DNA from: Candidatus Falkowbacteria bacterium | GTDB taxonomy: Bacteria > Patescibacteriota > Patescibacteriia > Patescibacteriales > WJLG01 | Direction: 5' to 3' | Length of the DNA stretch: 64,000 bases | NCBI GenBank assembly: GCA_963747695.1 | Contig: CAVVFV010000008.1 | Span: 267,592-331,591, forward strand | Shown: positions 1-33,835 of the stretch, piece by piece | Numbering within the stretch: position 1 is the first letter of the stretch | How the letters are laid out: each line of letters opens with the position of its first letter | Notes under the pieces: model-generated | What the model was told of the DNA's origin: nothing | Seen by the model: the letters and a program-made list of their open reading frames with translations, nothing else | Databases searched by the model: none | Made by a program: the position numbers and the translations under genes

Positions 1-2
1 TA

Positions 3-80
3 GAGGAAACTGAAAAGGAAATGAAAAAAACGCCGCCGAATTTCGATTATGAGAATAGTTTGGAGCCTGAATTGGAATAA
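3..80 (+). CDS. 3' end of a gene starting upstream of the window (partial)
   Basis: Frame open from window edge (...EETEKEMKKTPPNFDYENSLEPELE*) ending at TAA 78-80; too short to assign. Confidence 0.25.
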   Translation, partial: EETEKEMKKTPPNFDYENSLEPELE

Positions 81-226
81 AAAGCTAACAGTTGACCCGG
101 GCATTGCTTTTCTCCGTCGTTATGTCAGGCTTGTTTAAATAATTTCGGCCCGCCAAGTACGCCGCTAAGCGGAGACAATTTGTTTTTTAATTTTTGGTTT
201 GAGTTTATCTAAATATTTATTTCGCG

Positions 227-3088
227 ATGGAAGAAAAAAAGATAAAAAATAAGAATTTATTTTCCTTGCCGAGCAAGACGATTTTTATTGTTACCTTGTT
301 TTTGCTGATTGGCTTATTTTTTGCCGGCCATTCTATCCTCGCCCAGATTCCAACTGCCCAACAAACCGCGGGCCTTCCTAATGTCACGGGCGGTCAAACT
401 GCAAGCGGAGGTACCGGTAGTACCGCTGCCACCGCTGCCAAGGCCGATGGCACCTGCGGCATTCTTGATTTTTCCTGTCAGATTCCCATGATTCTTACCA
501 GTATAGAAAGACTAATATTAAATGTTTCGGGAGATATCCTTGCTCTCTTGATGCCGGCGCTGATCTTTGTCGCCGAGTATAACGCTTTTACCACTTCCCC
601 TCCGGTTACCGACGGCTGGGTGATCGTCCGCGATCTCTGCAATATGTTTTTCATCTTGATCCTCCTGCTGATCGCTTTTGCCACGATCTTGCGCGTCGAA
701 GGATATGATATCAAAAAAATGGTGCCCAAGCTGGTCATTATGGCGATCCTCATCAATTTTTCCAAAACCATCTGCGGACTGATCATTGATTTTGCCCAGG
801 TCATTATGAATACCTTCATCAGTCCGTTTGCCGGAATCGGTTCGATCAGCATGACGACCATGCTCGGGTTAAATACGATGTCCGGTTTTTCTTCTTCCGG
901 CGTTGCCGCCACTCAATGGTCGATTTTTGCCGCTTATGCCTTTGCGCTTATTTATACATTGATCGCGGCCGTAGTCTTGGTGGTTATTTTCGTCGTCTTA
1001 GTCGTCAGGGTCGTGATGCTTTGGATCTACATCGTCCTTTCACCGCTTTCTTATTTGTTGGCGACTTTTCCGCAAGGGCAGCGATATGTTTCGCAATGGT
1101 GGGAAGAATTCACCAAGAATGTTATCGTCGGCCCGGTACTGGCCTTTTTCCTCTGGCTGTCTTTCGTTTCCCTGGGCACTACCAATTCCGGAACCAGTCT
1201 TTTGGGCAACGGCGCGCCGACCGATAATTTGATTAAAGATATGCCCCCCGTTCTTACCGGCGCAATGACGCTTGATCAGTTGATCAAGTTCACCGTTTCC
1301 ATCGGTATGCTCGTCGGCGGCTTAATAGTCACTCAGCAGATGGGCGGGTATATGGGGAAGATCGCCGGCCAGGGCATGGCCAAAATCCAAGGCGGCGCCA
1401 AGATCTTGGGCGGTGGAGTGAAGCGGATCGCGACTGCGCCTCTGGGCGCTGCGAAATGGGCAGGGGGCGTGGGCGTAGACGCGCTTCAGCATCGAGGCAT
1501 CGTTGATTTGAATGTGGGCAGGGTTTGGAAAGGATTCCAAGAAAGAAGACAGGAAAAGAAAGCATCGCTTTATAATTTGGGCCAAAAAAAGGCCTCGGAA
1601 CGTTTGCAACAGACCGGTAGGTTCGGCGGCGCCTTGGCTTTGACGGCCATGCCTCGCGATGCCTATAACCAACTTAACAGCCGGGAAGGATTAACGGAAA
1701 GATTCTGGCGGGGCGGTAAGGGAACGGCGAAATTGAGAGGTGAAGCCGGTGATCAGCTGAAGGTGGAGGAAGATAAATTAGGGGTAGCCCAAGGCATAAA
1801 GGATATTAACTCCCGGACGGATATCAGTTTAGCTAAACAGCAAGAAGCTAACTATAAAGCTGGGGTCGCAGGGACAGATCATTCTGCTCGCAAGAACGCA
1901 ATTAAAACTACCGAAGCCGACATTTTGTCTGATAGAAATAATATCAGGGTCGGCGAAGCCAACGGTACGCTTAAGGGTCCGGTTTTGGATCAAGCTAAAA
2001 TTAATTTAGCCGGCAAAGAGAAAGAATTAAGCTGGATCAAAGAGGTTGACCAAGATATTGGCGACGAGAAAAAAGGTAACAAGTTGGATGTTGATCAGAA
2101 AAAGCAAAATTATGCCCAAGCGCCTCAGCAATTAATTAATGAGCGAAATGAGGATCAGGCCAAGAGGCTAAAACTAGTGTCGCAATTGAGCCCTGATGAT
2201 TGGAACGCTTTCAAAAATAGCGAAACCGGTACCGAACCTTTTGAAGACAGGGTTAAAGCGGCTAAGGATGAGCAGGGTAAATACGCGCCTGTCTACAATG
2301 CTGAAGCCAGAGCAGCCGGGCAGCAAGCCGAGGCGGTGGAAGGGGCGAAGACCAAAGATATTACTGATTCCGATGAAAAATTAAGAATGCTTATTTCGGC
2401 AATTAAAAATAAAAACCAGCCGGCAATCAGGGCGATTCTTAAGCAAATGGCGATGAACGGGGATGATAACGAAGCTTTGCAGCCTTTGGTCGGCGATACT
2501 TCCGCTTTTGGCATCCAAAAGCTGATGTCGGCTTTATCCGGTAAACTAACCGCGCAAGAATTAGCTTCCAATCCCCAATTAAAGGATCTTAACGCCGGTT
2601 TCTCCGAACAGGATGCCATGGCTTTGGGCTCCGAGATCGGTATGATTAATAAGCAGACCAATCATTGGAACGCCACTGCGCCTTATAAGATGCGAGGCGG
2701 CGTTTGGGAGAAAAGTACGGAAAAAGATATGTCGGATTTCCGCAGCGCGGAAATATCCAAGATGGATCCCCAGGTGATAACCAGAGCTTTCAACCGGTTG
2801 GCTTACGGCCGTGAAGATTCCAAGAGAAAATTTCATTTGGATGCCGCCGGTGTGATCAGCTTGAGGTTATTGGATAATGCTAATGGTATAAATCAGATTG
2901 GTAGTAGAATGACGCAAAATACGGCGGAGAAGCTGACAAAAGGTGACGCGGGTGAAAAGCTGCGTGATTTGGTTAAGAATGGAATTTTATCCCAGCAAAT
3001 TGTTGATGTGCTTTTCCAGCGGGCGAAATCTTCGGCTAAAAATCCAACGGCCGATTTGCAGCAAATCCATGACGTTTTGGGAGAATAA
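227..3088 (+). CDS. VirB6/TrbL-like polytopic membrane protein with long charged C-terminal tail (T4SS-like cluster)
   Basis: 953-aa ORF. It has an N-terminal signal/TM segment, a Gly/Thr/Ala-rich linker with a Cys pair, and about 6 or more hydrophobic helices (aa ~90-370). A ~550-aa Lys/Glu/Gln-rich tail follows. It heads a cluster with PrgI-like and VirB4-like genes. Family call rests on architecture and context only. Confidence 0.5.
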   Translation: MEEKKIKNKNLFSLPSKTIFIVTLFLLIGLFFAGHSILAQIPTAQQTAGLPNVTGGQTASGGTGSTAATAAKADGTCGILDFSCQIPMILTSIERLILNVSGDILALLMPALIFVAEYNAFTTSPPVTDGWVIVRDLCNMFFILILLLIAFATILRVEGYDIKKMVPKLVIMAILINFSKTICGLIIDFAQVIMNTFISPFAGIGSISMTTMLGLNTMSGFSSSGVAATQWSIFAAYAFALIYTLIAAVVLVVIFVVLVVRVVMLWIYIVLSPLSYLLATFPQGQRYVSQWWEEFTKNVIVGPVLAFFLWLSFVSLGTTNSGTSLLGNGAPTDNLIKDMPPVLTGAMTLDQLIKFTVSIGMLVGGLIVTQQMGGYMGKIAGQGMAKIQGGAKILGGGVKRIATAPLGAAKWAGGVGVDALQHRGIVDLNVGRVWKGFQERRQEKKASLYNLGQKKASERLQQTGRFGGALALTAMPRDAYNQLNSREGLTERFWRGGKGTAKLRGEAGDQLKVEEDKLGVAQGIKDINSRTDISLAKQQEANYKAGVAGTDHSARKNAIKTTEADILSDRNNIRVGEANGTLKGPVLDQAKINLAGKEKELSWIKEVDQDIGDEKKGNKLDVDQKKQNYAQAPQQLINERNEDQAKRLKLVSQLSPDDWNAFKNSETGTEPFEDRVKAAKDEQGKYAPVYNAEARAAGQQAEAVEGAKTKDITDSDEKLRMLISAIKNKNQPAIRAILKQMAMNGDDNEALQPLVGDTSAFGIQKLMSALSGKLTAQELASNPQLKDLNAGFSEQDAMALGSEIGMINKQTNHWNATAPYKMRGGVWEKSTEKDMSDFRSAEISKMDPQVITRAFNRLAYGREDSKRKFHLDAAGVISLRLLDNANGINQIGSRMTQNTAEKLTKGDAGEKLRDLVKNGILSQQIVDVLFQRAKSSAKNPTADLQQIHDVLGE

Positions 3089-3107
3089 TAAAATTTTAAT
3101 CTGAATT

Positions 3108-4115
3108 ATGGCCACAGATTCCTTGCTAAAAAATAAAATCAACTATCGAGACCCTTCGTTTTTGGCTTTGGTCGGGGATTTTTTAAATTCCGCCGCGGCC
3201 GAAGACGATTCGAAACAGGCACTTAATTTAAGCCGAATCATCGGTAATTTTTTGGCGCGGAAAAAAAGTGAAATGGAGCAAAACCCGGATCTTTATGATT
3301 TTTATCGGAAGGCTCTGATAAAAGCGCAATTCATCGCTTTGCCGCTTTTGGATAACAACGTTGCGATTGATCTACTTAAAAATCATTTCATTACTCAATT
3401 TGAGATCGATTTCTACGATCTACTGGATAAATTCCGCACAAAATTGATCAACATTCCGGTTTACGAGGACCGCGACGCTTTGCGTAGGGAAATCGGGAAA
3501 ATTCTTTTGGATAGCGGCCAACTCTTGACCGGCGGGGCAATGCCGCCGCGGACGGTGGGCGAGTGGATCAAAGATTACAGCGCCAAATTAGGCATTGGCC
3601 GAGCGGATAGCTTGAAAAGAACCCAATATTTTTTGGATCTGGGTCGGGAGAGGAAGCTAAGCGAAAAAGACCAGAGAAAGTTAAAAGCCCTGTTCGATCT
3701 TTATGAGGAGACCAAGATATCCAGTTTAGAACCTTTTGGTTATGATTATGACGTTCCGATAATCGTCGACGGGAAATATTTTATTTTCAAAAGAGGTATT
3801 CTGGAAAAATTAGAAGGCAATGAAAATGAATTTAATCGAATCAACGGGCTATTAAAAACCGGGGAAGAAGAAGCCGCGGCTGCGGCAGGACAAAAGCCGG
3901 CCATTGCTCCTGGCGCGCCGAGGGCCAAGGGAATTCCAGTCTCACCCAGAGGAGTGCCTGCTTCGTCTTCCGCCACCGGTTTCGCGGCGCTTTCGGCGGC
4001 CGATAAGCAAATCGACGATTTAAAACAAACCGCCGCAAAATATCGTCCCGGCAGTCTCCAAAGAAAAGCGGTGGAAGCGGAAATAAAGAAGTTAGAAGGC
4101 AGAAGTCAGAAGTAA
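3108..4115 (+). CDS. hypothetical protein (T4SS-like cluster)
   Basis: 335-aa ORF 19 nt after the previous stop, same strand. Ala/Pro-rich segment near the C-terminus. The last codons (KKLEGRSQK*) are encoded by the heptamer array that follows. Confidence 0.75.
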   Translation: MATDSLLKNKINYRDPSFLALVGDFLNSAAAEDDSKQALNLSRIIGNFLARKKSEMEQNPDLYDFYRKALIKAQFIALPLLDNNVAIDLLKNHFITQFEIDFYDLLDKFRTKLINIPVYEDRDALRREIGKILLDSGQLLTGGAMPPRTVGEWIKDYSAKLGIGRADSLKRTQYFLDLGRERKLSEKDQRKLKALFDLYEETKISSLEPFGYDYDVPIIVDGKYFIFKRGILEKLEGNENEFNRINGLLKTGEEEAAAAAGQKPAIAPGAPRAKGIPVSPRGVPASSSATGFAALSAADKQIDDLKQTAAKYRPGSLQRKAVEAEIKKLEGRSQK

Positions 4116-4147
4116 GAAGCCAGAAGTTAGAAATCAGAAGTTAGAAA
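4088..4147. repeat. left arm of cassette 1: tandem heptamers GAAGNNA (~8.5 units)
   Basis: gaagtta gaaggca gaagtca gaagtaa gaagcca gaagtta gaaatca gaagtta gaaat; reverse-complementary to the CTTCTTA array at 4542-4574. Confidence 0.9.
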
Positions 4148-4166
4148 TATTCAACAATGATTTAAT

Positions 4167-4541
4167 ATGAGGGAGGGAAGTTATCAGGACATTGATCAGA
4201 GGACGTTTAATTTTGCCAATAGGGTTATTAAGATGATTCCGCAATTACCTAACAATGTGACAACTTGGAAAATAGGCGCTCAAGTAATTGATTCGGCCAC
4301 GTCAGTTAATTCTAATATTGTTCAAGCCCGCGGTGGATTATCAAAAAAGGATTTTACGCATCATCTAAGGATTTCTTTGAAAGAAGCGCGGGAAACCAAA
4401 AGATGGCTGGAAATGATCATTGCTGTCGGTTTGGCTCCTGAAGAAAAAATGTGCTGGCTGTTGGCGGAAAACGAAGAAATAATTTGTATTTTGGTTACAA
4501 TGATAAAAAATTCACAAGATGAAAGTTTGAACAAGGAGTAA
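4167..4541 (+). CDS. four-helix-bundle protein (23S rRNA intervening-sequence protein / Avd-like family)
   Basis: 124 aa. Motifs FNFANRVIKM...SATSVNSNIVQARGG.SKKDFTHHLRISLKEARETKRWLEMI are typical of the PF05635/TIGR02436 family as I recall it. No SD upstream. Confidence 0.85.
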   Translation: MREGSYQDIDQRTFNFANRVIKMIPQLPNNVTTWKIGAQVIDSATSVNSNIVQARGGLSKKDFTHHLRISLKEARETKRWLEMIIAVGLAPEEKMCWLLAENEEIICILVTMIKNSQDESLNKE

Positions 4542-4574
4542 TTTCTTACTTCTTACTTCTTACTTCTTACTTCA
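4542..4574. repeat. right arm of cassette 1: tandem heptamers CTTCTTA (~4.5 units)
   Basis: tttctta cttctta cttctta cttctta cttc directly after stop 4539-4541; next gene starts (GTG) at 4578. Confidence 0.9.
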
Positions 4575-4577
4575 ACC

Positions 4578-5396
4578 GTGTTGGAATATTTAGAAAAATT
4601 TAATAATTTGCCTGATGTCGTGAAACAGAAAATTTCCGCGCCGGTGGTAATGGCCGCACTGGAAGAGCTGGAAGGCGAGTACGGCGTGGAACTGGCCGGT
4701 TTCGTGATGCGCGTCATGGTGGGTGATTTGTATTATAAAAATTTGACCGCTAATCTGATCATCGAATATAATTTGGCGCCGGAAGTCGCCGGCAGATTGG
4801 CGCAAGATTTGCAAAATAGAATCTTTGATCAGGTAATGGACTATTTAAGCCAGCCCAAGGCGGCACCGGCTTCCCAATCGGCCGAAGCCGATGCTTCTTT
4901 TTTTGGCAGCCGAGGTACACCGATTCCATCGGCTGTTCCGGCGGCAGCGGCTGTTTTGTCCGTGCCGGGTCCGGCCAAGTCCGCCTACGCTGAAGCCACG
5001 GCGGACAAGCCGGTCCCGCCGGCGGTGCGCCGCGCGCCGGTGACTAACGTAGGAACGCAAAATCTTGCGTTCCTACAAAATAGAAATTATTTGGAAGAAG
5101 ACAAGGCTGACATTACGGCGGCGGGAAAAATATCCACGACGATGAAAGCAGTGCCGCAAGAAAAGGTGGAGGCGATGCTGGCGGCGGTAATTGCGGAAGC
5201 CAAAGTCAGTTTTGCCAGCTCCAGCCTGCTCAAAAGATTTCGGGAAATCCTGCTTTCTTATTTACGCGGCGTGCGGACCAAAGTCGAAGTCCGGGAAAAC
5301 TTGCTGAAAGATTTTGCCTCCGGCGGAGTGAAAATGTCGGAAGCGGAAGCGGATCGGATTTTGAATATCGCCCAAAAGAAATTGAACCGACGATGA
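4578..5396 (+). CDS. hypothetical protein (T4SS-like cluster)
   Basis: 272-aa ORF with a GTG start 3 nt after the repeat arm. Contains an Ala/Pro-rich middle and two embedded perfect or near-perfect hairpins (4982-5010, 5048-5075). Confidence 0.7.
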   Translation: MLEYLEKFNNLPDVVKQKISAPVVMAALEELEGEYGVELAGFVMRVMVGDLYYKNLTANLIIEYNLAPEVAGRLAQDLQNRIFDQVMDYLSQPKAAPASQSAEADASFFGSRGTPIPSAVPAAAAVLSVPGPAKSAYAEATADKPVPPAVRRAPVTNVGTQNLAFLQNRNYLEEDKADITAAGKISTTMKAVPQEKVEAMLAAVIAEAKVSFASSSLLKRFREILLSYLRGVRTKVEVRENLLKDFASGGVKMSEAEADRILNIAQKKLNRR

Positions 5397-5712
5397 AGAA
5401 AAGATTCGCCGGTTCCGGCAAGGTCACGGCCAAAAGCACGGCTAACGGCACCAATTTCATTTTTAACGAGGGCAGAGATAAAACAAGCTCTGGCGCGCGT
5501 AATGCTTCGCCTCAAAGGTTAGCCGGCGGTAACTTCCGGTCTGGGCAGGCGATCGCGATGTCGGTTATGATCTCACGGCTTTAAAAAATACCTCCGCCGC
5601 TAAGACTTCCGCCTACGCTAAGGCTTTGGCGGACAAGTCGGAGGCAGCAAGACCTTGCGGGCTGACCGCCGGATAACAAAATATTCCGCCAGCTCAGCCG
5701 GAAAAGGCCGAA

Positions 5713-6189
5713 ATGCAAAATACTGCCCCTGCGGCGGCGATTCCAGTCAATCCGCCCCCCATGGAAGCTGCGGTTCCGGTAAAAACAATCAATCACGAAC
5801 CAAAGCGGACGGCCGCGGTGATGGGAAATAAAAAACGGATGGAAGATATCAAACCTTCGCCGCGCACGATGAGCCCGATCGATGAATTGGCCTATATGGA
5901 TCTGGTAAATTTCCGCCGGCTTGATCCGTCGCCGGCCGCGCGCATCACCAAGATCGAAGCCAAGATCGCTTTGTTGGAAAAAGAAGGGATCGATAAAAAG
6001 ATCGAAGGCATCCGGGTCTGGCGGCTCAATCCCGTCAATAAGACTTATTTGTCGATGGGGCAGGAAAGCATTGCCGGCGGGAAGAGTATTGATGATATAA
6101 TCAAAGAGCGCAAGGAGCAGGGGTTGAATTATCTTTCCCAGGAAGAATTCGAAGCGGTGATGGATCTTAACAATAATCTCAGATTCTAA
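5713..6189 (+). CDS. hypothetical protein (T4SS-like cluster)
   Basis: 158-aa ORF with the first ATG after an in-frame stop at 5674-5676. The stop TAA 6187-6189 abuts the next heptamer array. Confidence 0.7.
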   Translation: MQNTAPAAAIPVNPPPMEAAVPVKTINHEPKRTAAVMGNKKRMEDIKPSPRTMSPIDELAYMDLVNFRRLDPSPAARITKIEAKIALLEKEGIDKKIEGIRVWRLNPVNKTYLSMGQESIAGGKSIDDIIKERKEQGLNYLSQEEFEAVMDLNNNLRF

Positions 6190-6221
6190 TCGCATAACGC
6201 ATAGCGCGTAACGCATAACGG
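6190..6221. repeat. left arm of cassette 2: tandem heptamers CGCATAA/CGCGTAA
   Basis: cgcataa cgcatag cgcgtaa cgcataa cgg; reverse complement of 6570-6600 with few mismatches. Confidence 0.92.
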
Positions 6222-6224
6222 TTT

Positions 6225-6569
6225 ATGGATTTTCATGAAGAATTAAAATTGCTTATTCATCAATATGTAAAGTTCGTTTATAGAGTGACAAAAAATTTCC
6301 CCAAGGATGAATTATATGGCGTAGTTTCACAATTCAGAAGAGCCACAATGTCCATAATGTTAAATTACGTCGAAGGTTATGCCAGAAGAACGGGAGATGG
6401 TTGCAAGGTATACAATAATTTTTTAAATATTTCCTATGGATCGCTGAAAGAATCAAAATATTTGTTATTTTTTTCCTTGGATGAAAAATATATTTCAGAA
6501 GAAGAATATAAAACAGGTTTTGAGTTATGTGATAGGATTGGAAAAATGATTTGGAGTTTGATAAATTAG
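6225..6569 (+). CDS. four-helix-bundle protein (23S rRNA IVS protein / Avd-like family)
   Basis: 114 aa; YVKFVYRVTKNFPKDELYGVVSQFRRATMSIMLNYVEGYARRT...SYGSLKESKYLL matches family hallmarks. Confidence 0.85.
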   Translation: MDFHEELKLLIHQYVKFVYRVTKNFPKDELYGVVSQFRRATMSIMLNYVEGYARRTGDGCKVYNNFLNISYGSLKESKYLLFFSLDEKYISEEEYKTGFELCDRIGKMIWSLIN

Positions 6570-6600
6570 CCGTTACGCGTTATGCGTTACGCGTTATGCG
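6570..6600. repeat. right arm of cassette 2: tandem heptamers CGTTACG/CGTTATG
   Basis: ccgttacg cgttatg cgttacg cgttatg cg directly after stop 6567-6569; next ATG at 6607. Confidence 0.92.
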
Positions 6601-6606
6601 AAAACG

Positions 6607-7059
6607 ATGCAGATGTTCACTGTTCCTCAATTCATCGATGTTGAGGATAAAATTATCGGTCCGATTACGACGAGGCAATTCATCATTTGCCTAGTCGGCT
6701 TGGGCTTTCTGGTCCCGGCTTGGAAACTGTTTGATCTGCTCTGGTTCATCCTGTTTGGTTTGCTTGATTTCGTGATCGTCGGCGCCTTCGCCTTTACCAA
6801 GATCAATGGCCGGCCGTTCCATTATTTTGTCTTGAACGTCATCCAGACGATGAAGAAGCCGAATTTGCGGGTTTGGAATAATCGTAATCCGTTGAAAGAC
6901 CTGCTCTCGCAAGAAGAATCGGCCGCCGAGGAAGTGCCGAAGGTGACCAAATCGACCGCCACGAGAGAGCGCCTGGTCAGCTCGCATCTGAAAGAATTAT
7001 CATTGATCGTCGATACCAAAGGGGTCTATAAGGGGGAAGAAGGGGAGGAAATAGTTTGA
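6607..7059 (+). CDS. PrgI/VirB3-like small T4SS membrane protein
   Basis: 150 aa. N-terminal VPQFIDVEDKIIGPITTRQF followed by two TM helices, as I recall for the PrgI family (PF12666). Located upstream of the VirB4-like ATPase. Confidence 0.6.
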   Translation: MQMFTVPQFIDVEDKIIGPITTRQFIICLVGLGFLVPAWKLFDLLWFILFGLLDFVIVGAFAFTKINGRPFHYFVLNVIQTMKKPNLRVWNNRNPLKDLLSQEESAAEEVPKVTKSTATRERLVSSHLKELSLIVDTKGVYKGEEGEEIV

Positions 7060-7094
7060 TTAGTATTAAGTATTTGGTATTAAGTATTTAGTAT
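7060..7094. repeat. left arm of cassette 3: tandem heptamers NAGTATT
   Basis: ttagtatt aagtatt tggtatt aagtatt tagtat, starting 1 nt after stop TGA 7057-7059 and ending at the ATG 7095. Confidence 0.9.
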
Positions 7095-7460
7095 ATGAGT
7101 GAAAAGATCAGGTCGTTCGCTGATTTGGTTGCCTGGCAAGAAGCTCATCGTTTAGTTATCATTATTTATCGAATAACCAACGATTTTCCGAGAGAGGAAA
7201 TTTTCGGATTAACCAATCAAATGAGGCGGGCAGTTATTTCTGTTTCCTCGAATATTGCAGAAGGCTTTGGTCGAGAAACAAATAAAGATAAAAGTCATTT
7301 TTACGTGATGGCCCGAACTTCCGTGGTAGAAATCCAGAATCAATTATTGGCGGCCAGAGATATCGGATATTTGAATCAAAAAAATTTTGATTTTGCCGCC
7401 AATAAGACTATCAAAGTTCATAAATTAATCAACGGACTTATCAAAAAAGTAAAATACTAA
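7095..7460 (+). CDS. four-helix-bundle protein (23S rRNA IVS protein / Avd-like family)
   Basis: 121 aa; LVAWQEAHRLVIIIYRITNDFPREEIFGLTNQMRRAVISVSSNIAEGFGRET...FYVMARTSVVEIQNQL is a textbook family pattern. Confidence 0.88.
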   Translation: MSEKIRSFADLVAWQEAHRLVIIIYRITNDFPREEIFGLTNQMRRAVISVSSNIAEGFGRETNKDKSHFYVMARTSVVEIQNQLLAARDIGYLNQKNFDFAANKTIKVHKLINGLIKKVKY

Positions 7461-7490
7461 ATACTTTATACTAAATACGAAATACTAATC
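7452..7490. repeat. right arm of cassette 3: tandem heptamers AAATACN
   Basis: aaatact aaatact ttatact aaatacg aaatact aatc. Overlaps the last codons and stop of the 4HB gene. The next ATG is at 7492. Confidence 0.9.
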
Positions 7491-7491
7491 T

Positions 7492-8181
7492 ATGGCAGAA
7501 AAGACTAATCAATTAGCCAAAGGGAAAATCAGCGTCTCCACCCAGCAGTATTTGGATATTGCCGAGATCAAGGATGATGTCGTGGTGATGCGCGACGGCA
7601 CTTTGCGGGCCGTGCTTTTGGTTTCCAGCATCAATTTCGCTTTGAAAAGCGAAGACGAGCAGGAAGCGATCGTTTCTTCTTATGTCGGCTTTTTAAATAA
7701 TATCAATTTCCCGGTGCAGATCGTCATCCAGTCGCGTAAGCTGAATATCGAAGGATATCTGGCCGAATTAAAACAAAAAGAAAAAGAACAGCTGAACGAG
7801 CTGTTGAAAATCCAGACTCATGAATATATCGAATATATCCAAGAATTGGTATCGCTCGGAGAAATTATGAGCAAAAGTTTTTATGTCGTCGTGCCGTACA
7901 ATCCTTTATCCGACAAGCATAAAGGTTTCTTTTCTTCGATCAATGAGGTCTTGAAACCGGCGACTTTGGTCAGGATGAAAGGGAAAAGATTTGATCGCTA
8001 CAAGAAAGAACTGGACCGGCGTTTGGAGTCGATCGCCTCCGGTCTTGCCTCGGCCGGGTTGAAAACCGTGCAGCTGGACACCCAAGGTTTGATCGAATTG
8101 TACTATAATACTTATAATCCGGTAACCGCGGAAAATGAAGAATTGACCGAGATGAAGAATTTGCAGATCACCGAACCATAA
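7492..8181 (+). CDS. hypothetical protein, T4SS-cluster associated (possibly a detached VirB4 N-terminal-like module)
   Basis: 229-aa ORF directly upstream of VirB4. The segment IAEIKDDVVVMRDGTLRAVLLVSSINFALKSEDEQEAI resembles the N-terminal region of monoderm VirB4/TraE ATPases from memory. Not verified. Confidence 0.6.
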   Translation: MAEKTNQLAKGKISVSTQQYLDIAEIKDDVVVMRDGTLRAVLLVSSINFALKSEDEQEAIVSSYVGFLNNINFPVQIVIQSRKLNIEGYLAELKQKEKEQLNELLKIQTHEYIEYIQELVSLGEIMSKSFYVVVPYNPLSDKHKGFFSSINEVLKPATLVRMKGKRFDRYKKELDRRLESIASGLASAGLKTVQLDTQGLIELYYNTYNPVTAENEELTEMKNLQITEP

Positions 8182-8274
8182 CGCATAACGCATAACGCAT
8201 AACGCATAACGCATAACGCATAACGCATAACGCATAACGCATAACGCATAACGCATAACGCATAACGCATAACG
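8177..8274. repeat. 14 perfect tandem copies of CATAACG (left arm of an empty stem)
   Basis: Counted unit by unit, 8177-8274. The array begins inside the last codons and stop of the upstream gene. Confidence 0.97.
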
Positions 8275-8337
8275 ATTATGCTTTAACGGGTGTGATAAAG
8301 GGAAAGAAAAATTAATTTGTCAACATAATTTACAGCA

Positions 8338-8368
8338 CCGTTACGCGTTGCGCGTTACGGGTTACGCG
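8338..8368. repeat. right arm of the empty stem: CGTTACG-type heptamers
   Basis: ccgttacg cgttgcg cgttacg ggttacg cg. It is the reverse complement of the CGCGTAA/CGCATAA family. The VirB4 ATG follows at 8374. Confidence 0.88.
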
Positions 8369-8373
8369 AATAC

Positions 8374-10296
8374 ATGATAGATATAAGAAAATCAAATTTG
8401 GAAACCAAACGACCTCCGACCGAAGAGGAAGTGCTGAACGCCCAAGGCGGCAATGAAAATATTGCCGTTGTCCAGGAATTGGTCGAGGAAGAAAAGGCAT
8501 TTCGCCGCGGCGTTCTGTCGGTTTTGGATTTGATCGCTCCGGCGGCGATGCAGATGTTTCCCGATCATCTTCGCCTTGGCGACAAGTTTGTCCGGACGAT
8601 TTTCATTATCGGTTATCCGCGCTATATCAGCGTCGGCTGGTTCGCGCCGGTCATCAATCTGAACGAAGTTTTCGACGTGGCGATGTTTTTCTATCCGGTC
8701 AATACGGCGATAATCCTGAAGCAGCTGAAGAAAAAAGTCGGCGCGCTCGAAGCCCAGATAATTTCGGACGCGGAAAAAGGCGCGGCCCGCGATCCGCTGC
8801 GGGAAACCGCTTTGAAAGATATCGAATACTTGCGCGACGCCCTGACGCAGGGGATTGAGAAATTTTTCCAATTTTCTCTTTATGTCACCATTTATTCCAA
8901 CACCAAAGAAGATCTGGATAAGCTGTCCAATCAGGTCGAGGATATTTTCGGCTCGCGCCTGGTTTATTCCAAAAAAGTATTTTTCCAATCCGAGCAGGGT
9001 TTTAATTCCACTCTGCCGTTATGTAACGATGAATTGTACATCACTTTCAATATGAATTCTTCCCCGGCCGCTTCCTCTTTTCCTTTTATTTCGAGCGATC
9101 TGACGAGCGACCATGGAATCTTGTATGGCATCAACCGCCATAACAACAGCCTGATCCTCTTTGATCGGTTCAGTTTGCAGAACGCCAACAACGTCGTTTT
9201 CGCCACTTCCGGCGCGGGCAAGAGTTACGCGATCAAATTGGAAATATTGCGTTCGCTGATGATGGGCACGGACGTGATCATCATCGACCCGGAATATGAA
9301 TATAAGCATTTGTCCGAATCGGTCGGCGGCACTTACATCAACATCTCGCTAGCGAGCGAGGAAAAGATCAATCCGTTCGATCTGCCGCGCTCGATCGGCG
9401 GCGAATCCAAACCGGCCGACATCATCCGCGGCGCGGTGATTACCGTCAAAGGCTTGGTCCGCTTGATGCTGGGCGATCTTAACCATACCGAAGATTCGAT
9501 CGTCGATCGCGGCCTTTTGGAAACTTATGCCAAGAAAGATATCACTCCCGATGCCGACCTCTCGACGGTCGAAGCGCCGGTGATGCAGGATTTTCAGGAA
9601 GTTTTGGAAGGGATCGAGGGCGGCGCCGATCTGGCGATGCGTTTGCGCAAATATACCGAAGGGACTTTTGCCGGAATCTTGAACAACCCGACCAATGTCA
9701 AACTGGACAATCAATTGGTTTGTTTTTCCGTCCGCGACTTGGAAGATGAATTGCGGCCGCTCGCGATCTATACCATCATCAATTATATCTGGAATATCGT
9801 CCGGTCGGAATTGAAGAAAAGGATTCTGGTGATCGACGAGGCTTGGTGGCTGATGCAGAACGATGACAGCGCCAAATTCATCTATGCCCTGGTCAAACGC
9901 TGCCGCAAATATTATCTGGGCGTCACCACCATTACCCAGGACGTCAATGATTTCTTGCGTTCGCCTTATGGCCAGGCGATCGTGACCAACTCCTCGCTGC
10001 AATTATTGCTGAAGCAATCGCCGGCGGCGATCGATCTGATCCAAAAGACTTTCGTGCTGACTGAAGGAGAAAAATATCTGCTGTTGGAATCGGGCGTGGG
10101 CGAGGGGATTATTTTTGCCGGCAACAAGCACGCGGCGATCAAGATCGTCGCTTCCTACAGCGAGGATCAATTGATCACCTCGGATCCGCGGCAATTGCTG
10201 GAAATCGAGGAAGCCAAAAAAGAATTCGCCGCTTCAATGGATCAATCAGGCGGCCAGCCGGCCGCCGCTCCCGCCTTGCCGGATATGGAAATTTGA
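8374..10296 (+). CDS. virB4: VirB4/TrbE-family type IV secretion ATPase
   Basis: 640 aa. Walker A is ATSGAGKSY and Walker B is ILVIDEAWWLM. The N-terminal GYPRYISVGWFAPVINL...FFYP region is typical of VirB4/TraE (AAA_10). Confidence 0.85.
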   Translation: MIDIRKSNLETKRPPTEEEVLNAQGGNENIAVVQELVEEEKAFRRGVLSVLDLIAPAAMQMFPDHLRLGDKFVRTIFIIGYPRYISVGWFAPVINLNEVFDVAMFFYPVNTAIILKQLKKKVGALEAQIISDAEKGAARDPLRETALKDIEYLRDALTQGIEKFFQFSLYVTIYSNTKEDLDKLSNQVEDIFGSRLVYSKKVFFQSEQGFNSTLPLCNDELYITFNMNSSPAASSFPFISSDLTSDHGILYGINRHNNSLILFDRFSLQNANNVVFATSGAGKSYAIKLEILRSLMMGTDVIIIDPEYEYKHLSESVGGTYINISLASEEKINPFDLPRSIGGESKPADIIRGAVITVKGLVRLMLGDLNHTEDSIVDRGLLETYAKKDITPDADLSTVEAPVMQDFQEVLEGIEGGADLAMRLRKYTEGTFAGILNNPTNVKLDNQLVCFSVRDLEDELRPLAIYTIINYIWNIVRSELKKRILVIDEAWWLMQNDDSAKFIYALVKRCRKYYLGVTTITQDVNDFLRSPYGQAIVTNSSLQLLLKQSPAAIDLIQKTFVLTEGEKYLLLESGVGEGIIFAGNKHAAIKIVASYSEDQLITSDPRQLLEIEEAKKEFAASMDQSGGQPAAAPALPDMEI

Positions 10297-10360
10297 GACG
10301 GATAAAAAACTCAGTAAACAATATAAATTTACATATAAATATTAATTCGGCTTTGAATTT

Positions 10361-10393
10361 ATTGTCATATTGTTATATTGCCATATTGTTGTG
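10361..10393. repeat. left arm of an empty stem: tandem octamers ATTGNNAT
   Basis: attgtcat attgttat attgccat attgttgt g. Confidence 0.85.
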
Positions 10394-10450
10394 CGATGGG
10401 TTAAATAGTAAAAGACAATGATTTGATGAACAAGATTGGAAAATTGTTTC

Positions 10451-10483
10451 TAACAATATAACAATTTAGCAATATAACAATTT
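10451..10483. repeat. right arm of the empty stem: tandem octamers (reverse complement of ATTGNNAT)
   Basis: taacaatat aacaattt agcaatat aacaattt; next ATG at 10491. Confidence 0.85.
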
Positions 10484-10490
10484 AAAATCT

Positions 10491-11102
10491 ATGAACAAAC
10501 GAACATTAAGGATAATAATTTTGGTCGTCGTGATAATTTTATTGCTGCTCATCGTCGCTTATTTCCTGTTTATGTATAAATTCCCGGGCAGCGCCGTTAT
10601 TCCGATTGCGAACAAGCCGACCGCCGCAGTGACGACTAATAATATCGGACAGAATTCAACCGTCGCGCCGACCACGCCGACTCCGGCTAAACCGAGCGTT
10701 CCGCCGGCGTCAAACGACACGATCACCAAAACTAACCTGGTGAAGATCGCCGAATCGTTCGCGGAGCGTTTGGGCAGTTATTCCAATCAATCCAACTTCA
10801 GCAATATCAGCGATCTGAAGCTGCTGATGACCCCATCGATGCAATCCTGGGCGGACAAATATATCGTCGCCAACCAATCCGGGGCGTATTCCGGCGTTTA
10901 CCAGGGTGTAACCACTCAAGCGATTACGGCGGCGATCATTGATTTTGACGATGCCAAAGGCCAGGCCGATATTTTGGTGCACACCCAGAAGGCGACGCAG
11001 ACCGGTTCAAGCAGCCCGGTGGTCACTTACCAAGACATTACCATCACTTTCGTTAAACAGAAAAATATCTGGCTGGTAGACAATGCAGTTTGGAAGAAGT
11101 AA
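10491..11102 (+). CDS. membrane-anchored hypothetical protein
   Basis: 203 aa. N-terminal TM helix (IIILVVVIILLLLIVAYFLF), a Pro/Thr-rich linker, then a globular C-terminal part. Confidence 0.75.
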   Translation: MNKRTLRIIILVVVIILLLLIVAYFLFMYKFPGSAVIPIANKPTAAVTTNNIGQNSTVAPTTPTPAKPSVPPASNDTITKTNLVKIAESFAERLGSYSNQSNFSNISDLKLLMTPSMQSWADKYIVANQSGAYSGVYQGVTTQAITAAIIDFDDAKGQADILVHTQKATQTGSSSPVVTYQDITITFVKQKNIWLVDNAVWKK

Positions 11103-11182
11103 AATTAGGTAATTAGGATTTTCCCTTAGCGACTAAGATTGAAGGCAATCGCCCAAGTCCTAATCCCTAAGTTCCTAATTAT
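11103..11182. repeat. imperfect inverted repeat (AATTAGG units) with nested hairpin
   Basis: Left arm aattaggtaattagga versus right arm tcctaatccctaagttcctaatt. Inner perfect hairpin cttag-cga-ctaag at 11125-11137. Confidence 0.6.
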
Positions 11183-11219
11183 TAATATCATTATATTGAA
11201 AAGTTCAGAATGTTCGAGT

Positions 11220-12569
11220 ATGTCAGGTAAAACAAAGAATGTATATATTTGCACTAATTGCGGCGCCCAATCCATCAAATGGAGCGGGCGTTGTTTGGAA
11301 TGCGGCGGCTGGGGAACTTTGCAGTTGGAAACGGTCAATACCGAGGAAGGTAAAGCGGGAAATATCAATGCCGCCGTTCCGGCGCAAATTATCGATTTGG
11401 GAAAGATTGCCGACGAAAAGTTGGTCCGCTTGAAAACCGGCATCGAGGAATTTGACCGGGTTCTGGGCGGCGGTATCGTGCCCGGCTCTTTGGTGCTTCT
11501 TTCCGGCGAACCGGGAATCGGCAAGTCGACGATCGTGGCGCAAGTCGCCGATAAGATCGGATTGAATGGCAAAGGACAAGTGTTTTATGTTTCCGGCGAA
11601 GAATCGGCCGCGCAAGTTAAGGCGCGGCTGGATCGCCTTAATTGCGGTTTGGAAAATATCAAATTCATCAGCGAAACCGAGGCGGATAAAATTTGCGCCG
11701 CGCTGGTTAAAGAAAAACCGGCCTTGGCGATCATTGACTCGATCCAAACCGTTTATTGTCCGGAGATCGCCTCCGAGGCCGGCGGGTTAAGCCAGATCCG
11801 CGCCGCGGCGGTAAAATTTTTGGAAGTCGCCAAAAAAGATGGCGTAGCAATCTTGCTTATCGGCCACATCACCAAAGACGGCCAGATCGCCGGACCGAAA
11901 TCTTTGGAGCATATCGTCGATACGGTGATTTATCTGGAAGCGGATACGACTAATGATTATCGCGTCTTGCGGGCGATGAAAAATCGTTTCGGTTCGGTTA
12001 ATGAATTAGGAATTTTCGAGATGACCGGCGCGGGGTTTAAAGAAATCGTTAATCCATCGCTCGTTTTTGTGGAAACCGGCTTGGAAAATATTTCCGGCTC
12101 GGTCTTGTCGGCGGTAATGGAAGGCACCCGGCCGTTCATCGTCAATGTCCAGGCGCTCGCCACCAAAACCGTTTTCGGTTATCCGCAGCGCCGCGCTTCG
12201 GGATTCGATCTGAACCGTTTGCAAGTGCTCGCGGCAGTACTCACCAAAAAAGCCAAAATAAATCTGATGGCGGAAGATGTGGTCTTGAATATCGTCGGCG
12301 GTTTGAAATTGAACGATCCGGCGATGGACTTGGCGGTCTGTCTGGCAATCATTTCTTCTTTATTGAACAAGGTGATTGATAATAAGACGATCGTTTTGGG
12401 GGAGGTTGGTTTGGGCGGGGAAGTGCGCTCGGTGCCGAAGCTGGCCGAGCGTTTGAAGGAAGCGGAAAAACTCGGCTTCACCCGCGCCATCATTCCCGAT
12501 GCCAAAGTTTCCGGCGGCAAGATGAAATTGACTAAGGTCAAAAGCGTTTCCGAATTGCTGAGCGTCTAA
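11220..12569 (+). CDS. radA: DNA repair protein RadA/Sms
   Basis: Zn-ribbon CTNCGAQSIKWSGRCLECGGWG, Walker A GEPGIGKST, the KNRFG motif and a Lon-like C-terminal domain. ATG 11220 is preferred over the track start 11139, because the canonical RadA N-terminus begins at MSGKTK. Confidence 0.93.
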   Translation: MSGKTKNVYICTNCGAQSIKWSGRCLECGGWGTLQLETVNTEEGKAGNINAAVPAQIIDLGKIADEKLVRLKTGIEEFDRVLGGGIVPGSLVLLSGEPGIGKSTIVAQVADKIGLNGKGQVFYVSGEESAAQVKARLDRLNCGLENIKFISETEADKICAALVKEKPALAIIDSIQTVYCPEIASEAGGLSQIRAAAVKFLEVAKKDGVAILLIGHITKDGQIAGPKSLEHIVDTVIYLEADTTNDYRVLRAMKNRFGSVNELGIFEMTGAGFKEIVNPSLVFVETGLENISGSVLSAVMEGTRPFIVNVQALATKTVFGYPQRRASGFDLNRLQVLAAVLTKKAKINLMAEDVVLNIVGGLKLNDPAMDLAVCLAIISSLLNKVIDNKTIVLGEVGLGGEVRSVPKLAERLKEAEKLGFTRAIIPDAKVSGGKMKLTKVKSVSELLSV

Positions 12570-12648
12570 TCGGTAACGGATAAATTCATTATAAATAAAA
12601 AAACCGACGGTTAAATCGGCTTTTGGGACAGATTGCGACGCTGGGCGC

Positions 12649-16577: not shown

Positions 16578-16805
16578 GGCAATATCCTTTTTTGGGGTGT
16601 TTAAAGGGCATTCTAAGTTTCCACCTAAAATACCATAAATACTAAAATAAATCAATAGATAGTTGCGCTTAATGGGCTTAGCCCCAAAAATGTGTATCTA
16701 ACGGCCAAAAAGTGATATAATTTGATAGTTAGAAGCGATAATGCCGGCGATAAAATTAAACCATCAGCGCGGTGATTTTATCGTCAGATTAATCAATAAT
16801 AATTG

Positions 16806-19800
16806 ATGAAAAATAATTTCGGATCATTTTTGTTTTCTCGCGAACATAAATTTTTTAACAAAAAATTATTCTTCGTTGTCGCTGCCGCTATGATTTTATC
16901 CGGCGGCTTTTTTGTGGCTCCCGCTCAAGCTACTCCTCCCGGTCTCCCTTTAGGCTTTTATGGGACTGGTAACGCTCCGAATTCCGTAGTCGCGGCCGAT
17001 TTTAATAATGATACCTTTTCTGATTTTGCGGAGACAAATTACAGCGATGACGATGTTTCAGTCTTCATAAACGACCAAAATGGAATTTTTGCTTCCCGCG
17101 TAAATTATCCAGTCGGGGAACAGCCCTGGTCGGTGGTTGCCGCGGATTTCAATAAGGACGGAAAGATTGATTTAGCCACGGCAAATTTCGTGGGCAATAA
17201 TATTTCGGTGCTTATGGGGAATGGCGATGGCACTTTTGTTTCGGCGGTGGATTATCCTGTTCTCTACGCTCCCGATTCAATCATCACAGCAGATTTTAAC
17301 GGCGATGGCTATCCTGATCTGGCGGTCACCACTTATTCCAGCAATCAATTATACATTTTACTTAATAACGGCGATGGCACTTTTACGGTTTCGAATATTT
17401 ATGACACGGGCATTACTCCCTGGTATCTTGCCACGGGCGATTTTGACGGCGACGGCCACGCCGATCTGGCATTGATAAATCGCTCGGATGGCAGTTTTTC
17501 AATTTTTCTTGGCGCGGGCGACGGAACTTTCGGTCCGCCGATAACTTCTGATTTGGGAGAAGCCGGGAGAGGGATCTTTACTTATGATTTCAATGGCGAC
17601 GGTAAGGACGATTTGGCTATCGGCAGTTTTAATGACGGCTATATTTCAATTTATTTGAGTACTGGCAGCGGTAATTTCGCTTCGCCAATGGCTTACAGTG
17701 TCGGCTCGGGCAATCAGGCGATCGTCGGAGGAGATTTTAACAATGATGGATTCCTGGATTTGGCCACGGCTAATTGGAATGATAATGATATTTCCGTCAT
17801 CCTGGGTAGCGGCGGAGGAAATTTTGGCGACGCTACGAATTATTCAGTCACCGTTGATCCGGCAGCGATCACTGCGGCCGATTTTGATAACGACGGCCAG
17901 AAGGATTTAGTAGAGGTGAACCAGGACTCAAATACCGCCGATGTTTTTTTTAATACCGACGGTGTTTTTAACATTATCGGGCCGGCGCCGATCGTTTATC
18001 CGATTACCAATTGCCAAGACTTGCAGGACATTGATTCGCTGATCAATGATAATCCAGACGCTGCCTACGCAGATTTTGAAATCGTTACTTCTTCCCCGAC
18101 TATTGATTGCGGCGCGGTAAACGGCACCGGAATTTTTGCGCCGATCAGTAATTCTTTTTATGGCACTCTGAACGGCAATAACATTAAGATTACCAATTTT
18201 AATATCAGCGACGATAGCGATGTTAGTGTCGGACTGTTTGGCGATCTGGAAAGCGGCGCCACGATAGAAAATTTGACTTTGTCCGGCGGCGATGTTTCCT
18301 CAGCTAACGGGGGCAATATCGGCGTTCTGGCCGGCTATGCCTATGGCAATGTGACAATTCAAAATGTCACCAGCACGGTTTCCACTTTAACCGGAGATGA
18401 TGAATTGGCAGTCGGCGGCTTAATCGGATATTACGAAGATGATGATATCGGACCAGGACTTATTTTAAATAACGTTAAATTGTCGACGAATATTTCCGCC
18501 GAAAATAATGGACAAGATGTCGGCGGGCTGATCGGCGATTTTGAACTTGATGGAAGCTCGGCGGCTACCATAACAGGCTGCAATTTTTCCGGCAACATCG
18601 ACAGTGTTGGCAGCCAAATCACCGGAGGCTTGATCGGATATATTGGTTCTGTAGCTCAAGACGCAATTTCAATCGTTAATAGTTCGGTTAGCAGTGACAC
18701 ATTATCAGGTAGTGGCAATACCGGTGGGTTGATCGGAAGTTATTATTTTGAAGGTGATCCGAAATTAACGATCACTAAAAGTTATTTTTCCGGCGGTCAG
18801 GTTAGCGGCGTTTTCAATGTCGGTGGCTTACTGGGTTCTTTCGAGAATAATTCCCAGGATTATTCGCAAATCGACATCATTAGTCAAAGCTATTCCACCG
18901 GACAAATTTTCGGGAGCGACTTTGCCGTCGGCGGTTTAATCGGAGAATTGGTCGACGATGAACAATGTGGAACCGGCACTGATTGTCCCGGCGGATTGAT
19001 AATTTCAAAAAGCTATTACAAAGGTTACAACATCACCGGCCTAAATGGTTACGTGGGCGGATTGGTGGGGCGAATGGCGGATGGAAATTTTTCCATTGCC
19101 GACTCTTATTCCTCGGGCGTGATTGCCAGTGCTGGTGATGATACCGGCGGTTTGGTAGGCGACATGCAAAGCTATATGCCGATTATGTCGATTGACCGAT
19201 CTTATGCCTCTGGCACGGTTTGGGGTGACGATAATTATAACGGTGGACTCGTGGGCTATTTGGAAAACGACAGTACCTTAACTAACTCTTTCAGCACGAG
19301 CGATGCTAATCACGGCACCAATACTGTTGGCGGGTTAGTCGGCTATGCCGATAATGAGAATAATCTGGTCAACGATTATTGGTTTGATTCTCAGGACAAT
19401 GGAACGGGTGATGGATTGGAAAACAGCATCGCCGGCCATTTTGTCAAAGCTGATTCGGCCGAGTCTTTCCAAAATAACAGCACTACTCCGCCGCTTAATC
19501 AGTGGAATTTTTCCGATCCTAATCCGATTTGGCTATCTCAAGCAGCGGATTACCCTGCCTTTAACCCCGATTATGTTTCCACCACCACTGTCCATACACT
19601 CAATTATTCCGCTGGTACCGGTGGATCAATAGCCGGTGGTTCGGGGCAATATGTTTTCGCCGGCGCCGACGGAGCGGCCGTGACCGCCGTGCCTAATTCG
19701 GGTTATGAATTCGTTAATTGGGACGATGATTCGACGGATAACCCCAGAACCGACACTAATGTTACCGATGATATTTCGGTCACCGCCAATTTTTCCTTCG

Positions 19801-33763: not shown

Positions 33764-33835
33764 TGCTCTCGACAGGAATCGAACCTGTATCGCAAGCTTC
33801 GGAGGCCTGCGTCCTATCCGTTGAACGACGAGAGC
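33764..33835 (-). tRNA. tRNA-Arg (anticodon CCG)
   Basis: Hand-folded cloverleaf: acceptor GCTCTCG/CGAGAGC, D arm GTTC-AACGGATA-GGAC, anticodon arm CAGGC-CTCCGAA-GCTTG, T arm ACAGG-TTCGATT-CCTGT, discriminator A. No encoded CCA. Confidence 0.88.

Follow-up and report, generated by a model that had tools for sequence, protein, structure and literature searches.

Four-helix-bundle genes between inverted heptamer arrays at the junctions of a type IV secretion-like operon: probable intervening-sequence-type cassettes in a CPR (candidate phyla radiation) bacterium

A 64-kb stretch of a Candidatus Falkowbacteria genome (assembly GCA_963747695.1, contig CAVVFV010000008.1, positions 267,592 to 331,591), hereafter the window, carries a conserved operon that resembles a type IV secretion system (T4SS). 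The host is a CPR bacterium. Three gene junctions of this operon are occupied by cassettes, in which a small gene of the four-helix-bundle family PF05635 lies between two arrays of 7-nt units, the second array being the reverse complement of the first. Two further junctions hold paired arrays that enclose no gene. It is probable that the cassettes are hairpin units of the intervening-sequence type placed in the junctions of an mRNA operon, where they decay to empty hairpins. Comparison with related operons shows that gain, loss and relocation of the cassettes take little evolutionary time, and that they are copied between sites as units extending from arm to arm.

ORF-bearing intervening sequences of 23S rRNA (ORF, open reading frame) are known. 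The wider implication of the comparisons is the embedding of PF05635 genes in inverted tandem-heptamer arms across phyla, and their colonisation of operon junctions. In the open-access literature, no description linking heptamer arrays to four-helix-bundle genes was found beyond the Coxiella intervening sequence; an earlier account elsewhere is possible.

Structure and distribution of the cassettes

The earlier note on this DNA described three cassettes with the order array, four-helix-bundle ORF and reverse-complement array. All three were recovered in place with Tandem Repeats Finder, an inverted-repeat search and the ORF list, and the distances reported between arrays and neighbouring genes were correct when checked on the sequence. 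Two points were added. In cassette 3, the final codons and stop of the ORF lie within the right arm, which corrects the earlier description, and two further paired arrays missing from it, both ORF-less, are present in the operon (elements 4 and 5). The features are as follows, with the encoded proteins designated as H1 to H3 and the operon genes as g1 to g6, VirB4 and g8; g4/g5 and similar terms denote the junction between the named genes.

4087-4146, + strand: cassette 1 left arm; 8.6 units of AGAAGTY, including the g2 stop (4113-4115) and encoding the last g2 residues
4167-4541, + strand: cassette 1 ORF (H1), 124 aa; PF05635 E 4.8e-18, 65.8 bits; TIGR02436 82.9 bits
4543-4573, + strand: cassette 1 right arm; 4.4 perfect TTCTTAC units, reverse complement of the left arm, ending 4 nt before the g3 GTG (4578)
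6190-6222, + strand: cassette 2 left arm; CGCATAA-type heptamers that follow the g4 stop (end at 6189) without a gap (Tandem Repeats Finder 6191-6220)
6225-6569, + strand: cassette 2 ORF (H2), 114 aa; PF05635 E 6.5e-26, 91.1 bits; TIGR02436 88.1 bits
6569-6601, + strand: cassette 2 right arm; CGTTAYG heptamers, 6 nt before the g5 ATG (6607) (Tandem Repeats Finder 6571-6600)
7058-7094, + strand: cassette 3 left arm; AAGTATT-type heptamers, beginning at the g5 stop and reaching the ORF ATG (Tandem Repeats Finder 7060/7062-7094)
7095-7460, + strand: cassette 3 ORF (H3), 121 aa; PF05635 E 2.9e-34, 117.9 bits; TIGR02436 113.5 bits
7452-7490, + strand: cassette 3 right arm; AAATACT heptamers, 1-3 nt before the g6 ATG (7492) (Tandem Repeats Finder 7452-7488)
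8177-8368, + strand: element 4, at g6/VirB4; 14 perfect CATAACG units (8177-8274), a 64-nt loop and a CGTTACG arm (8339-8368)
10358-10487, + strand: element 5, at VirB4/g8; 8-nt unit TATTGTYA / TAACAATW in arrays 10360-10390 and 10451-10485, with a loop of ~60 nt

These five are all the paired arrays in the window, and they are confined to 6.4 kb. Five of the six cassette arms contain 4.3-5.3 units, the left arm of cassette 1 being longer, as listed. The inverted-repeat search paired the left and right arrays over 31-44 nt at 77-88% in cassette 1, 23-37 nt at 84-96% in cassette 2, and 69 nt at 72% in cassette 3. The array supplies the stop codon of the upstream gene in cassette 1 and in element 4, where the first unit provides the stop of g6. 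Element 5 ends ~3-5 nt before the g8 ATG. Its unit family is also found at other junctions in L082, L054 and L008 (L-numbers designate comparison loci from other assemblies or genomes), and element 4 shares the unit family of cassette 2.

The assignment of the three proteins to the four-helix-bundle family was confirmed with hidden Markov models. H1, H2 and H3 all scored above the cut-offs of PF05635 (33.8 bits; observed 65.8-117.9 bits) and TIGR02436 (24 bits; observed 82.9-113.5 bits), and H3 matches the crystallised family member XCC0516 (PDB 2GSC) with the E-value 1.9e-18. XCC0516 is a homopentamer of four-helix bundles (PMC4990558). Pairwise identity among H1, H2 and H3 is only 15-29%. 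The ORFs are under strong purifying selection, with a ratio of nonsynonymous to synonymous substitution rates (dN/dS) of 0.03-0.10, and of 0.03-0.04 for H3 against L082 and L084. The proposed link to Avd, the accessory protein of diversity-generating retroelements, stands as far as a distantly related four-helix-bundle fold is concerned, while membership in the Avd family does not: the Avd models, PF22296 (bAvd of Pfam, cut-off 40 bits) and NF033474 (cut-off 80 bits), gave 25.5/23.4 and 28.3/27.1 bits for two window proteins and no match for H1, all below the cut-offs.

The architecture is general in related loci. Together with the window they contain 15 distinct four-helix-bundle ORFs, every one of which lies between inverted arrays of 7- or 8-nt units that enclose a loop of 347-396 nt, and there are ~30 further paired arrays with loops of 2-153 nt in the related loci. 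A scan of GTDB species, with a close alignment as the query because the nine divergent proteins were too diverse, returned 81 homologues from 80 species, mostly CPR. Displaced segments served as the control for their flanks; a null based on permutation between loci was dropped since unrelated genomes share unit families. Complementary flanks were found in 80% of the 81 homologues and in 1.2% of the displaced controls. Among the periods compared, 7 ranked first for 65 of the 81 upstream flanks and 66 of the 81 downstream flanks, but for just 21 of 486 control segments, and the period-7 signal spans ~-25 to +4 relative to the ATG and -11 to +27 relative to the stop. The neighbouring genes are mostly co-oriented with the cassette gene (64:7 upstream and 66:9 downstream), at a median distance of 34-35 nt, which is about the length of one arm.

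Outside CPR, 15 plasmid-borne genes were inspected and 10 of them have inverted heptamer arms. They are from Riemerella, Picosynechococcus, Geminocystis, Calothrix brevissima, three Nostoc, Anabaena sp. 90, Stanieria (partial) and Azospirillum. The locus from Azospirillum lipoferum (L094) is a genuine 23S rRNA intervening sequence, as the whole locus matches the large-subunit rRNA model with 907 bits. At the XCC0516 gene, the start codon is covered by a GGGAATC array of four units.

On cyanobacterial plasmids (L089, L092, L176 and L181), cassettes separate cas6 from cas4, cas10/cmr2 from cmr3 and, lying there in antisense orientation, nrdB from nrdA. The cassette between cas6 and cas4 is that of Anabaena sp. 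90, and the Picosynechococcus cassette is the one between cas10 and cmr3. PF05635 genes have been reported in cas loci without a link to heptamer arrays (PMC3936711, PMC10910872), and insertions of this kind may explain the published "CRISPR-associated" calls for the family.

Gain, loss and relocation at operon junctions

A metagenome scan with the VirB4-like protein of the window yielded 80 loci with the same gene order. The median gaps in these orthologous operons are 5 nt at g4/g5 (n = 60), 6.5 nt at g5/g6 (n = 68) and 21.5 nt at g6/VirB4 (n = 78), and the corresponding gaps in the window are 417, 432 and 192 nt. Since the orthologous junctions typically measure 5-22 nt, the window elements are insertions. 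A four-helix-bundle gene is present in only 7 of the 80 orthologous operons, at varying junctions, and seven of the eight copies in the metagenome loci are at the junctions from g4 to VirB4. Presence and absence with boundaries at the arrays, which the earlier note had put forward as a sign of mobile cassettes, is seen both in these gaps and in the comparisons with L001, L082 and L084.

The closest relative is L082 (VirB4 95%, g6 93% and radA 87% identical), and it shares just one of the five window elements, cassette 3, at the same junction (g5/g6). Elsewhere L082 has an empty hairpin of 8-mers at g2/g3, an empty AATTTTT hairpin at g4/g5 and a decayed TTCGTAT cassette at g6/VirB4. L001, with 92% identity in VirB4, has no ORF cassette; its g6/VirB4 gap is 7 nt, and an empty heptamer hairpin of another unit is found at g5/g6. 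L084 carries an H3-type cassette with AAGTATT arms, encoding a protein 89% identical to H3, at g6/VirB4 rather than at g5/g6 as in the window and L082, and the homology between the L084 and window cassettes stops at the outer ends of the arms. Cassettes 2 and 3 are not assembly artefacts, because L081, an independent assembly of the same organism, reproduces them base for base.

Copying between sites is seen in L086, which belongs to the same genome as L082. It contains three cassettes with TTCGTAT arms, each preceding a prepilin-like gene (3035-5953). Over ~425 nt, exactly from left arm to right arm, a single position distinguishes copy A from copy C (99% identity), while their upstream flanks are unalignable and the downstream genes are ~76% identical.

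Two side observations concern these copies. In each L086 cassette the right arm is read as the prepilin leader peptide (MKVKKIRNTRYEIRDTNPG/FTLLE), which would be removed by prepilin peptidase. Copy B carries an in-frame stop.

In the loci compared, each repeat-unit family travels with its own protein subfamily. AGAAGTT arms accompany H1-type ORFs in the window and in a copy in L009 (445-696), which is reduced to 30 codons. CRCRTAA arms accompany H2-type ORFs in the window and at g6/VirB4 in L056, whose protein is 61% identical to H2, and they are ORF-less in element 4. AATTTTT arms enclose an ORF in L009 and L021 and are empty in L041, L082 and L084, and TTCGTAT arms are those of the three L086 copies and the decayed L082 copy. 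The ORFs decay by internal deletion, leaving empty hairpins such as elements 4 and 5. Element 4 illustrates this with cassette 2-type arms only 64 nt apart, at the junction where L056 has an intact H2-type cassette. The array copy number is unequal between the arms (14 and 4.3 in element 4, 8.6 and 4.4 in cassette 1) and varies from one orthologous copy to another. The arms of cassette 3 match those of L082 and L084 at 92-95% identity, compared with only 42-45% at four-fold degenerate sites, which means that the arm sequence, and not complementarity alone, is under constraint.

Junction hairpins can have other content. At g2/g3 in L084 (1480-2020), long imperfect inverted repeats enclose a GxxExxY / PDDEXK_3 gene (TIGR04256, PF13366) as a separate cassette, and the four-helix-bundle gene is thus not the sole cargo. 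L026 has ORF-less composite arrays of CCGAAT-type repeats and TTTTGAA heptamers at 1020-1290, and L084 has a solo AGAACAK heptamer array without an inverted partner at 4170-4198. The large gaps in L048 and L026 were rejected as four-helix-bundle cassettes, their content being different; L048 has a possible small ORF on the opposite strand, recognized by eye from a six-frame translation.

The host operon, delimited from the ORF list, Pfam and synteny in the 80 metagenome loci, is composed as follows.

227-11102, + strand: T4SS-like operon, followed by radA and recG
227-3088, + strand: g1
3108-4115, + strand: g2, stop at 4113-4115
4578-5396, + strand: g3, GTG start, 272 aa
5713-6189, + strand: g4, 158 aa
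6607-7059, + strand: g5, PrgI-like, ATG start
7492-8181, + strand: g6, TraC-like, ATG start
8374-10296, + strand: VirB4/TraG-type P-loop ATPase
10491-11102, + strand: g8, ATG start

An exact look-up of the VirB4-like protein returned no record. In L082, g3 and g4 are one gene of 528 aa, and in the window this frame is broken by an in-frame TGA (5394-5396) and a frameshift at ~5528-5554; a pseudogene, variation between strains or an error in the sequence may account for the split. L081, an independent Logan assembly, agrees fully with the window between ~5800 and 8017 (100% identity). In the part of the compared range (4680-8017) upstream of ~5800, identity is only ~80-86%, with many indels and every type of substitution. 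This divergence resembles a mosaic formed by recombination, or a chimeric contig, rather than adenine-specific mutagenesis.

The earlier note had regarded the lack of Shine-Dalgarno sequences as a contrast between the operon and the rest of the window. This did not hold, as the motif is found upstream of only ~5 of the 37 long ORFs that the window contains. The genome thus largely initiates translation without it, and its absence, being genome-wide, was rejected as a distinguishing mark of the operon. An Rfam search of the window returned three tRNAs, no rRNA, and no RNA family on the arms. PADLOC defence models gave no match. Promoter and terminator scans over 1-12600 gave no excess over shuffled sequences and no prediction positioned on the cassettes. 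Beyond the operon, tandem repeats of 222 nt (76-81% matches) form two blocks at 24161-25411 within an ORF of 3213 aa (16803-26444), a second giant ORF of 2317 aa is at 26591-33544, and a solo AATTATA heptamer array without an inverted partner is at 33970-34003, ~135 nt from a tRNA gene (33764-33835).

Arm pairing and competing explanations

In the minimum-free-energy and centroid folds, all five elements close by pairing their two arrays. The arm-arm duplex energies are -34.2, -49.9 and -37.8 kcal/mol for cassettes 1-3, and -32.0 and -21.2 kcal/mol for elements 4 and 5. Relative to dinucleotide-shuffled arms, z-scores are -4.4, -6.5 and -9.8 for the cassettes and -2.1 and -5.5 for the two elements; the number of shuffles as good was 0 of 1000 for each cassette, in agreement with the pairing predicted by the earlier note, and 36 and 1 of 1000 for elements 4 and 5. 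Against random genomic partners, the z-scores range from -4.1 to -11.2. Whole-element folds gave -0.73, -3.54 and -7.60 (cassettes 1-3) and -1.28 and -2.24 (elements 4 and 5), weaker values because they are diluted by the long loops.

These properties suggest the following course of events for intervening-sequence-type cassettes in an operon. A cassette consists of a promoterless PF05635 gene between inverted arms of ~30 nt, each with about four to five tandem heptamers, and would be transcribed in sense orientation by read-through. In the transcript, the arms would close a stem of ~30 bp, with the upstream stop codon in its outer end and the start and stop codons of the cassette at its inner end. 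By analogy with rRNA intervening sequences, such a stem is a likely substrate of RNase III, and a cut there would release the cassette RNA and split the cistrons on either side from each other. RNase III processing of the transcripts is plausible on this analogy. Because 7 is not divisible by 3, an array can stop any upstream frame; a period-7 array would thus offer stops in all frames, and the upstream ORF would be terminated whenever a cassette inserts at the end of a gene. Stops in all three frames are present in 39% of the left arms, against 25% after shuffling.

The composition of the arms has a strand-specific polarity. The left arms contain 39% A, 21% G and 9% C, and the right arms are the mirror image. 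In the non-CPR set, the examples from Nostoc (CAGGAGT), Picosynechococcus (GGAGATA) and Azospirillum (GAGGACG) have left units that resemble Shine-Dalgarno sites. The fixed polarity, the Shine-Dalgarno-like left units and the co-orientation with neighbouring genes point to a constraint on a single strand at the transcript level.

Several observations weigh against intervening-sequence-type cassettes that move and act through RNA. The whole-element fold is weak for cassette 1 and element 4, for which only the arm-arm test is clearly significant. Among 96 cassettes, the arm duplex is more stable in sense in 53 and in antisense in 43 (p = 0.32), without G-U bias, and this strand-symmetric complementarity fits creation and maintenance at the DNA level as well as it fits RNA function. 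An RNase III signature motif, searched as a regular expression, was not found in the sequence of the window and loci, a result that is uninformative since these are genome fragments only. Five of the 15 non-CPR genes have no inverted arms (four with direct or one-sided arrays, one with none). The 99% pair in L086 could have arisen by gene conversion between already occupied sites, not by transposition. Target-site duplications were not seen at the cassette ends in the window, L082 and L084, a recombinase was not found among the scanned ORFs, and the only protein encoded by the cassettes is the four-helix bundle; the term mobile therefore rests on comparative patterns. On the evidence of the protein family, the arm pairing, the polymorphism, the occupation of different junctions, the arm-to-arm copying and the likeness to the Azospirillum and Coxiella elements, the suggestion of intervening-sequence-like mobile cassettes in an mRNA operon is well founded.

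The alternative that fares best, considered unlikely, is an element acting at the DNA level. The arms would be hairpins of single-stranded DNA or cruciforms recognized in trans by a host enzyme, as in the integron attC sites or in the repetitive extragenic palindromes (REP) and their associated tyrosine transposases (RAYT), or would be products of slippage and template switching, and the RNA stem would be a by-product. Besides the strand symmetry in the 96 cassettes, this is favoured by copy numbers that vary between arms and between orthologous copies, which is typical of replication slippage, by the copying bounded by the arms in L086, and by the empty hairpins of the same unit families scattered over other junctions. 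The lack of G-U bias and the unequal copy numbers also indicate that complementarity may arise at the DNA level, through slippage and template switching within the hairpin. The polarity argues the other way, as it is tied to the ORF direction, with a purine-rich 5' arm and a pyrimidine-rich 3' arm. So does the co-orientation of ~90% of the neighbouring genes, which indicates a transcript-related constraint on one strand. Moreover, the same architecture is demonstrably processed as RNA in rRNA (PMC4990558), and the ORFs that were scanned included neither a recombinase nor a RAYT-like gene.

A related proposal, regarded as doubtful, is that the protein and its cognate heptamers propagate themselves as a system that lacks a canonical transposase, much as RAYT and REP do. 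The protein would recognize its own unit, as RNA or single-stranded DNA, and promote the formation, maintenance or insertion of the arrays. ORF-less hairpins and solo arrays would be non-autonomous progeny or relics, among them the short tandemly repeated repetitive (STRR) sequences of cyanobacteria, the GGGAATC pairs of Xanthomonas, and helix extensions of rRNA and RNase P. Such a system would explain the recurring "association" of PF05635 with cas and other operons.

It is improbable that the arrays are regulatory hairpins of the host formed in place, serving as intercistronic mRNA stabilisers or translational-coupling stems, with ordinary, non-mobile four-helix-bundle genes between them. 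The stable stems are indeed exactly intercistronic, the outer stem holding the stop codon and the following start lying a few nucleotides further on, and heptamer arrays adjacent to start codons were proposed as regulators in Beggiatoaceae and Nostoc (PMC4679880; bioRxiv 10.1101/2022.06.06.494920). However, these junctions are only a few nucleotides wide in most orthologous operons, and four of the five differ among close relatives. A cassette type recurs in different junctions and in unrelated contexts (cas, nrd, prepilin and 23S rRNA), and the near-identical L086 copies have unrelated flanks.

Finally, it is very improbable that the four-helix-bundle proteins are accessory subunits of the T4SS-like machine, comparable to the CRISPR-association claims, or the Avd of a diversity-generating retroelement: the operon does hold three copies, seven of the eight copies in the metagenome loci cluster at the g4-to-VirB4 junctions, the family was reported within cas loci (PMC3936711; PMC10910872) and the bAvd and Avd models match weakly, but the gene is limited to 7 of the 80 orthologous operons at junctions that vary, the window copies are mutually only 15-29% identical, the Avd scores of 23-28 bits are below 40 and 80, and no PADLOC match was obtained. 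A reverse transcriptase was not found among 18 larger ORFs scanned against Pfam (the operon proteins and 10 further window ORFs); template and variable repeat pairs were not searched for. A diversity-generating retroelement was rejected on the sub-cut-off Avd scores, the lack of a reverse transcriptase in the scanned ORFs, and the differences between the window and L081 in g3 and g4, which include substitutions of all types and are not adenine-specific.

Comparison with known systems

Intergenic heptamer repeats of about four units, often in convergent inverted pairs, are shared with the STRR sequences of heterocystous cyanobacteria, the GGGAATC repeats of Xanthomonas and the TAACTGA repeats of Beggiatoaceae. 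In X. campestris, most GGGAATC arrays consist of four units, and there are 70 convergent pairs (PMC4692102), and the TAACTGA arrays often end beside a start codon or overlap a stop codon (PMC4679880). The likeness to the window is structural only, as the unit sequences are unrelated. These genomes have one dominant unit each, whereas each cassette family of the window has its own unit, and the papers treat the arrays as G-quadruplex or regulatory repeats, unconnected to four-helix-bundle genes.

REP/RAYT systems, including REPINs, and miniature transposable elements with inverted repeats (MITEs) resemble the window cassettes in having a single gene flanked by inverted repeats, gene-less intergenic hairpins and rapid turnover. 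They differ in that the window protein is a four-helix bundle of ~120 aa without known catalytic activity, and in that the window arms are tandem arrays, not one palindrome, with no target-site duplication seen. Integron cassettes share a promoterless small ORF, a foldable imperfect inverted repeat and presumed expression by read-through. In contrast, the window cassettes have two arms around the ORF instead of one 3' attC site and are scattered over operon junctions instead of being stacked in one array, and no integrase was found among the scanned window ORFs that would indicate an integron integrase/attI system. With the Avd proteins of diversity-generating retroelements, the window proteins share a distantly related fold and stay below the family cut-offs.

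ORF-bearing 23S rRNA intervening sequences are known in Leptospira and Coxiella burnetii and sit in helix 25 or 45. The window cassettes share with them a length of ~400-450 nt, terminal inverted repeats that form a long stem, and a PF05635 ORF in the loop. Tandem-heptamer arms are also shared, with GACAGAT in Coxiella and CAGAGGA / CGGATGA in Azospirillum, as are a sporadic distribution and ORF-less versions. In the C. burnetii intervening sequence, the tandem GACAGAT heptamers are located at the RNase III site (PMC4990558). The window cassettes differ in lying in a polycistronic mRNA, between a stop and the next start, not in helix 25 or 45 of rRNA, and RNase III excision, documented for the rRNA elements, is proposed for them by analogy.

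If this reading is true, the element type is not specific to rRNA but represents a general class of hairpin cassettes that colonise intercistronic junctions in many phyla. The reports of CRISPR- or operon-associated PF05635 genes (PMC3936711, PMC10910872) may then describe selfish insertions, not functional partners. It would also connect the ORF-bearing rRNA intervening sequences, the over-abundance of tandem heptamers in bacterial intergenic regions and the great size of the PF05635 family. Of the known systems, ORF-bearing intervening sequences of 23S rRNA come nearest to the window cassettes, and among the sequence features compared only the location differs.

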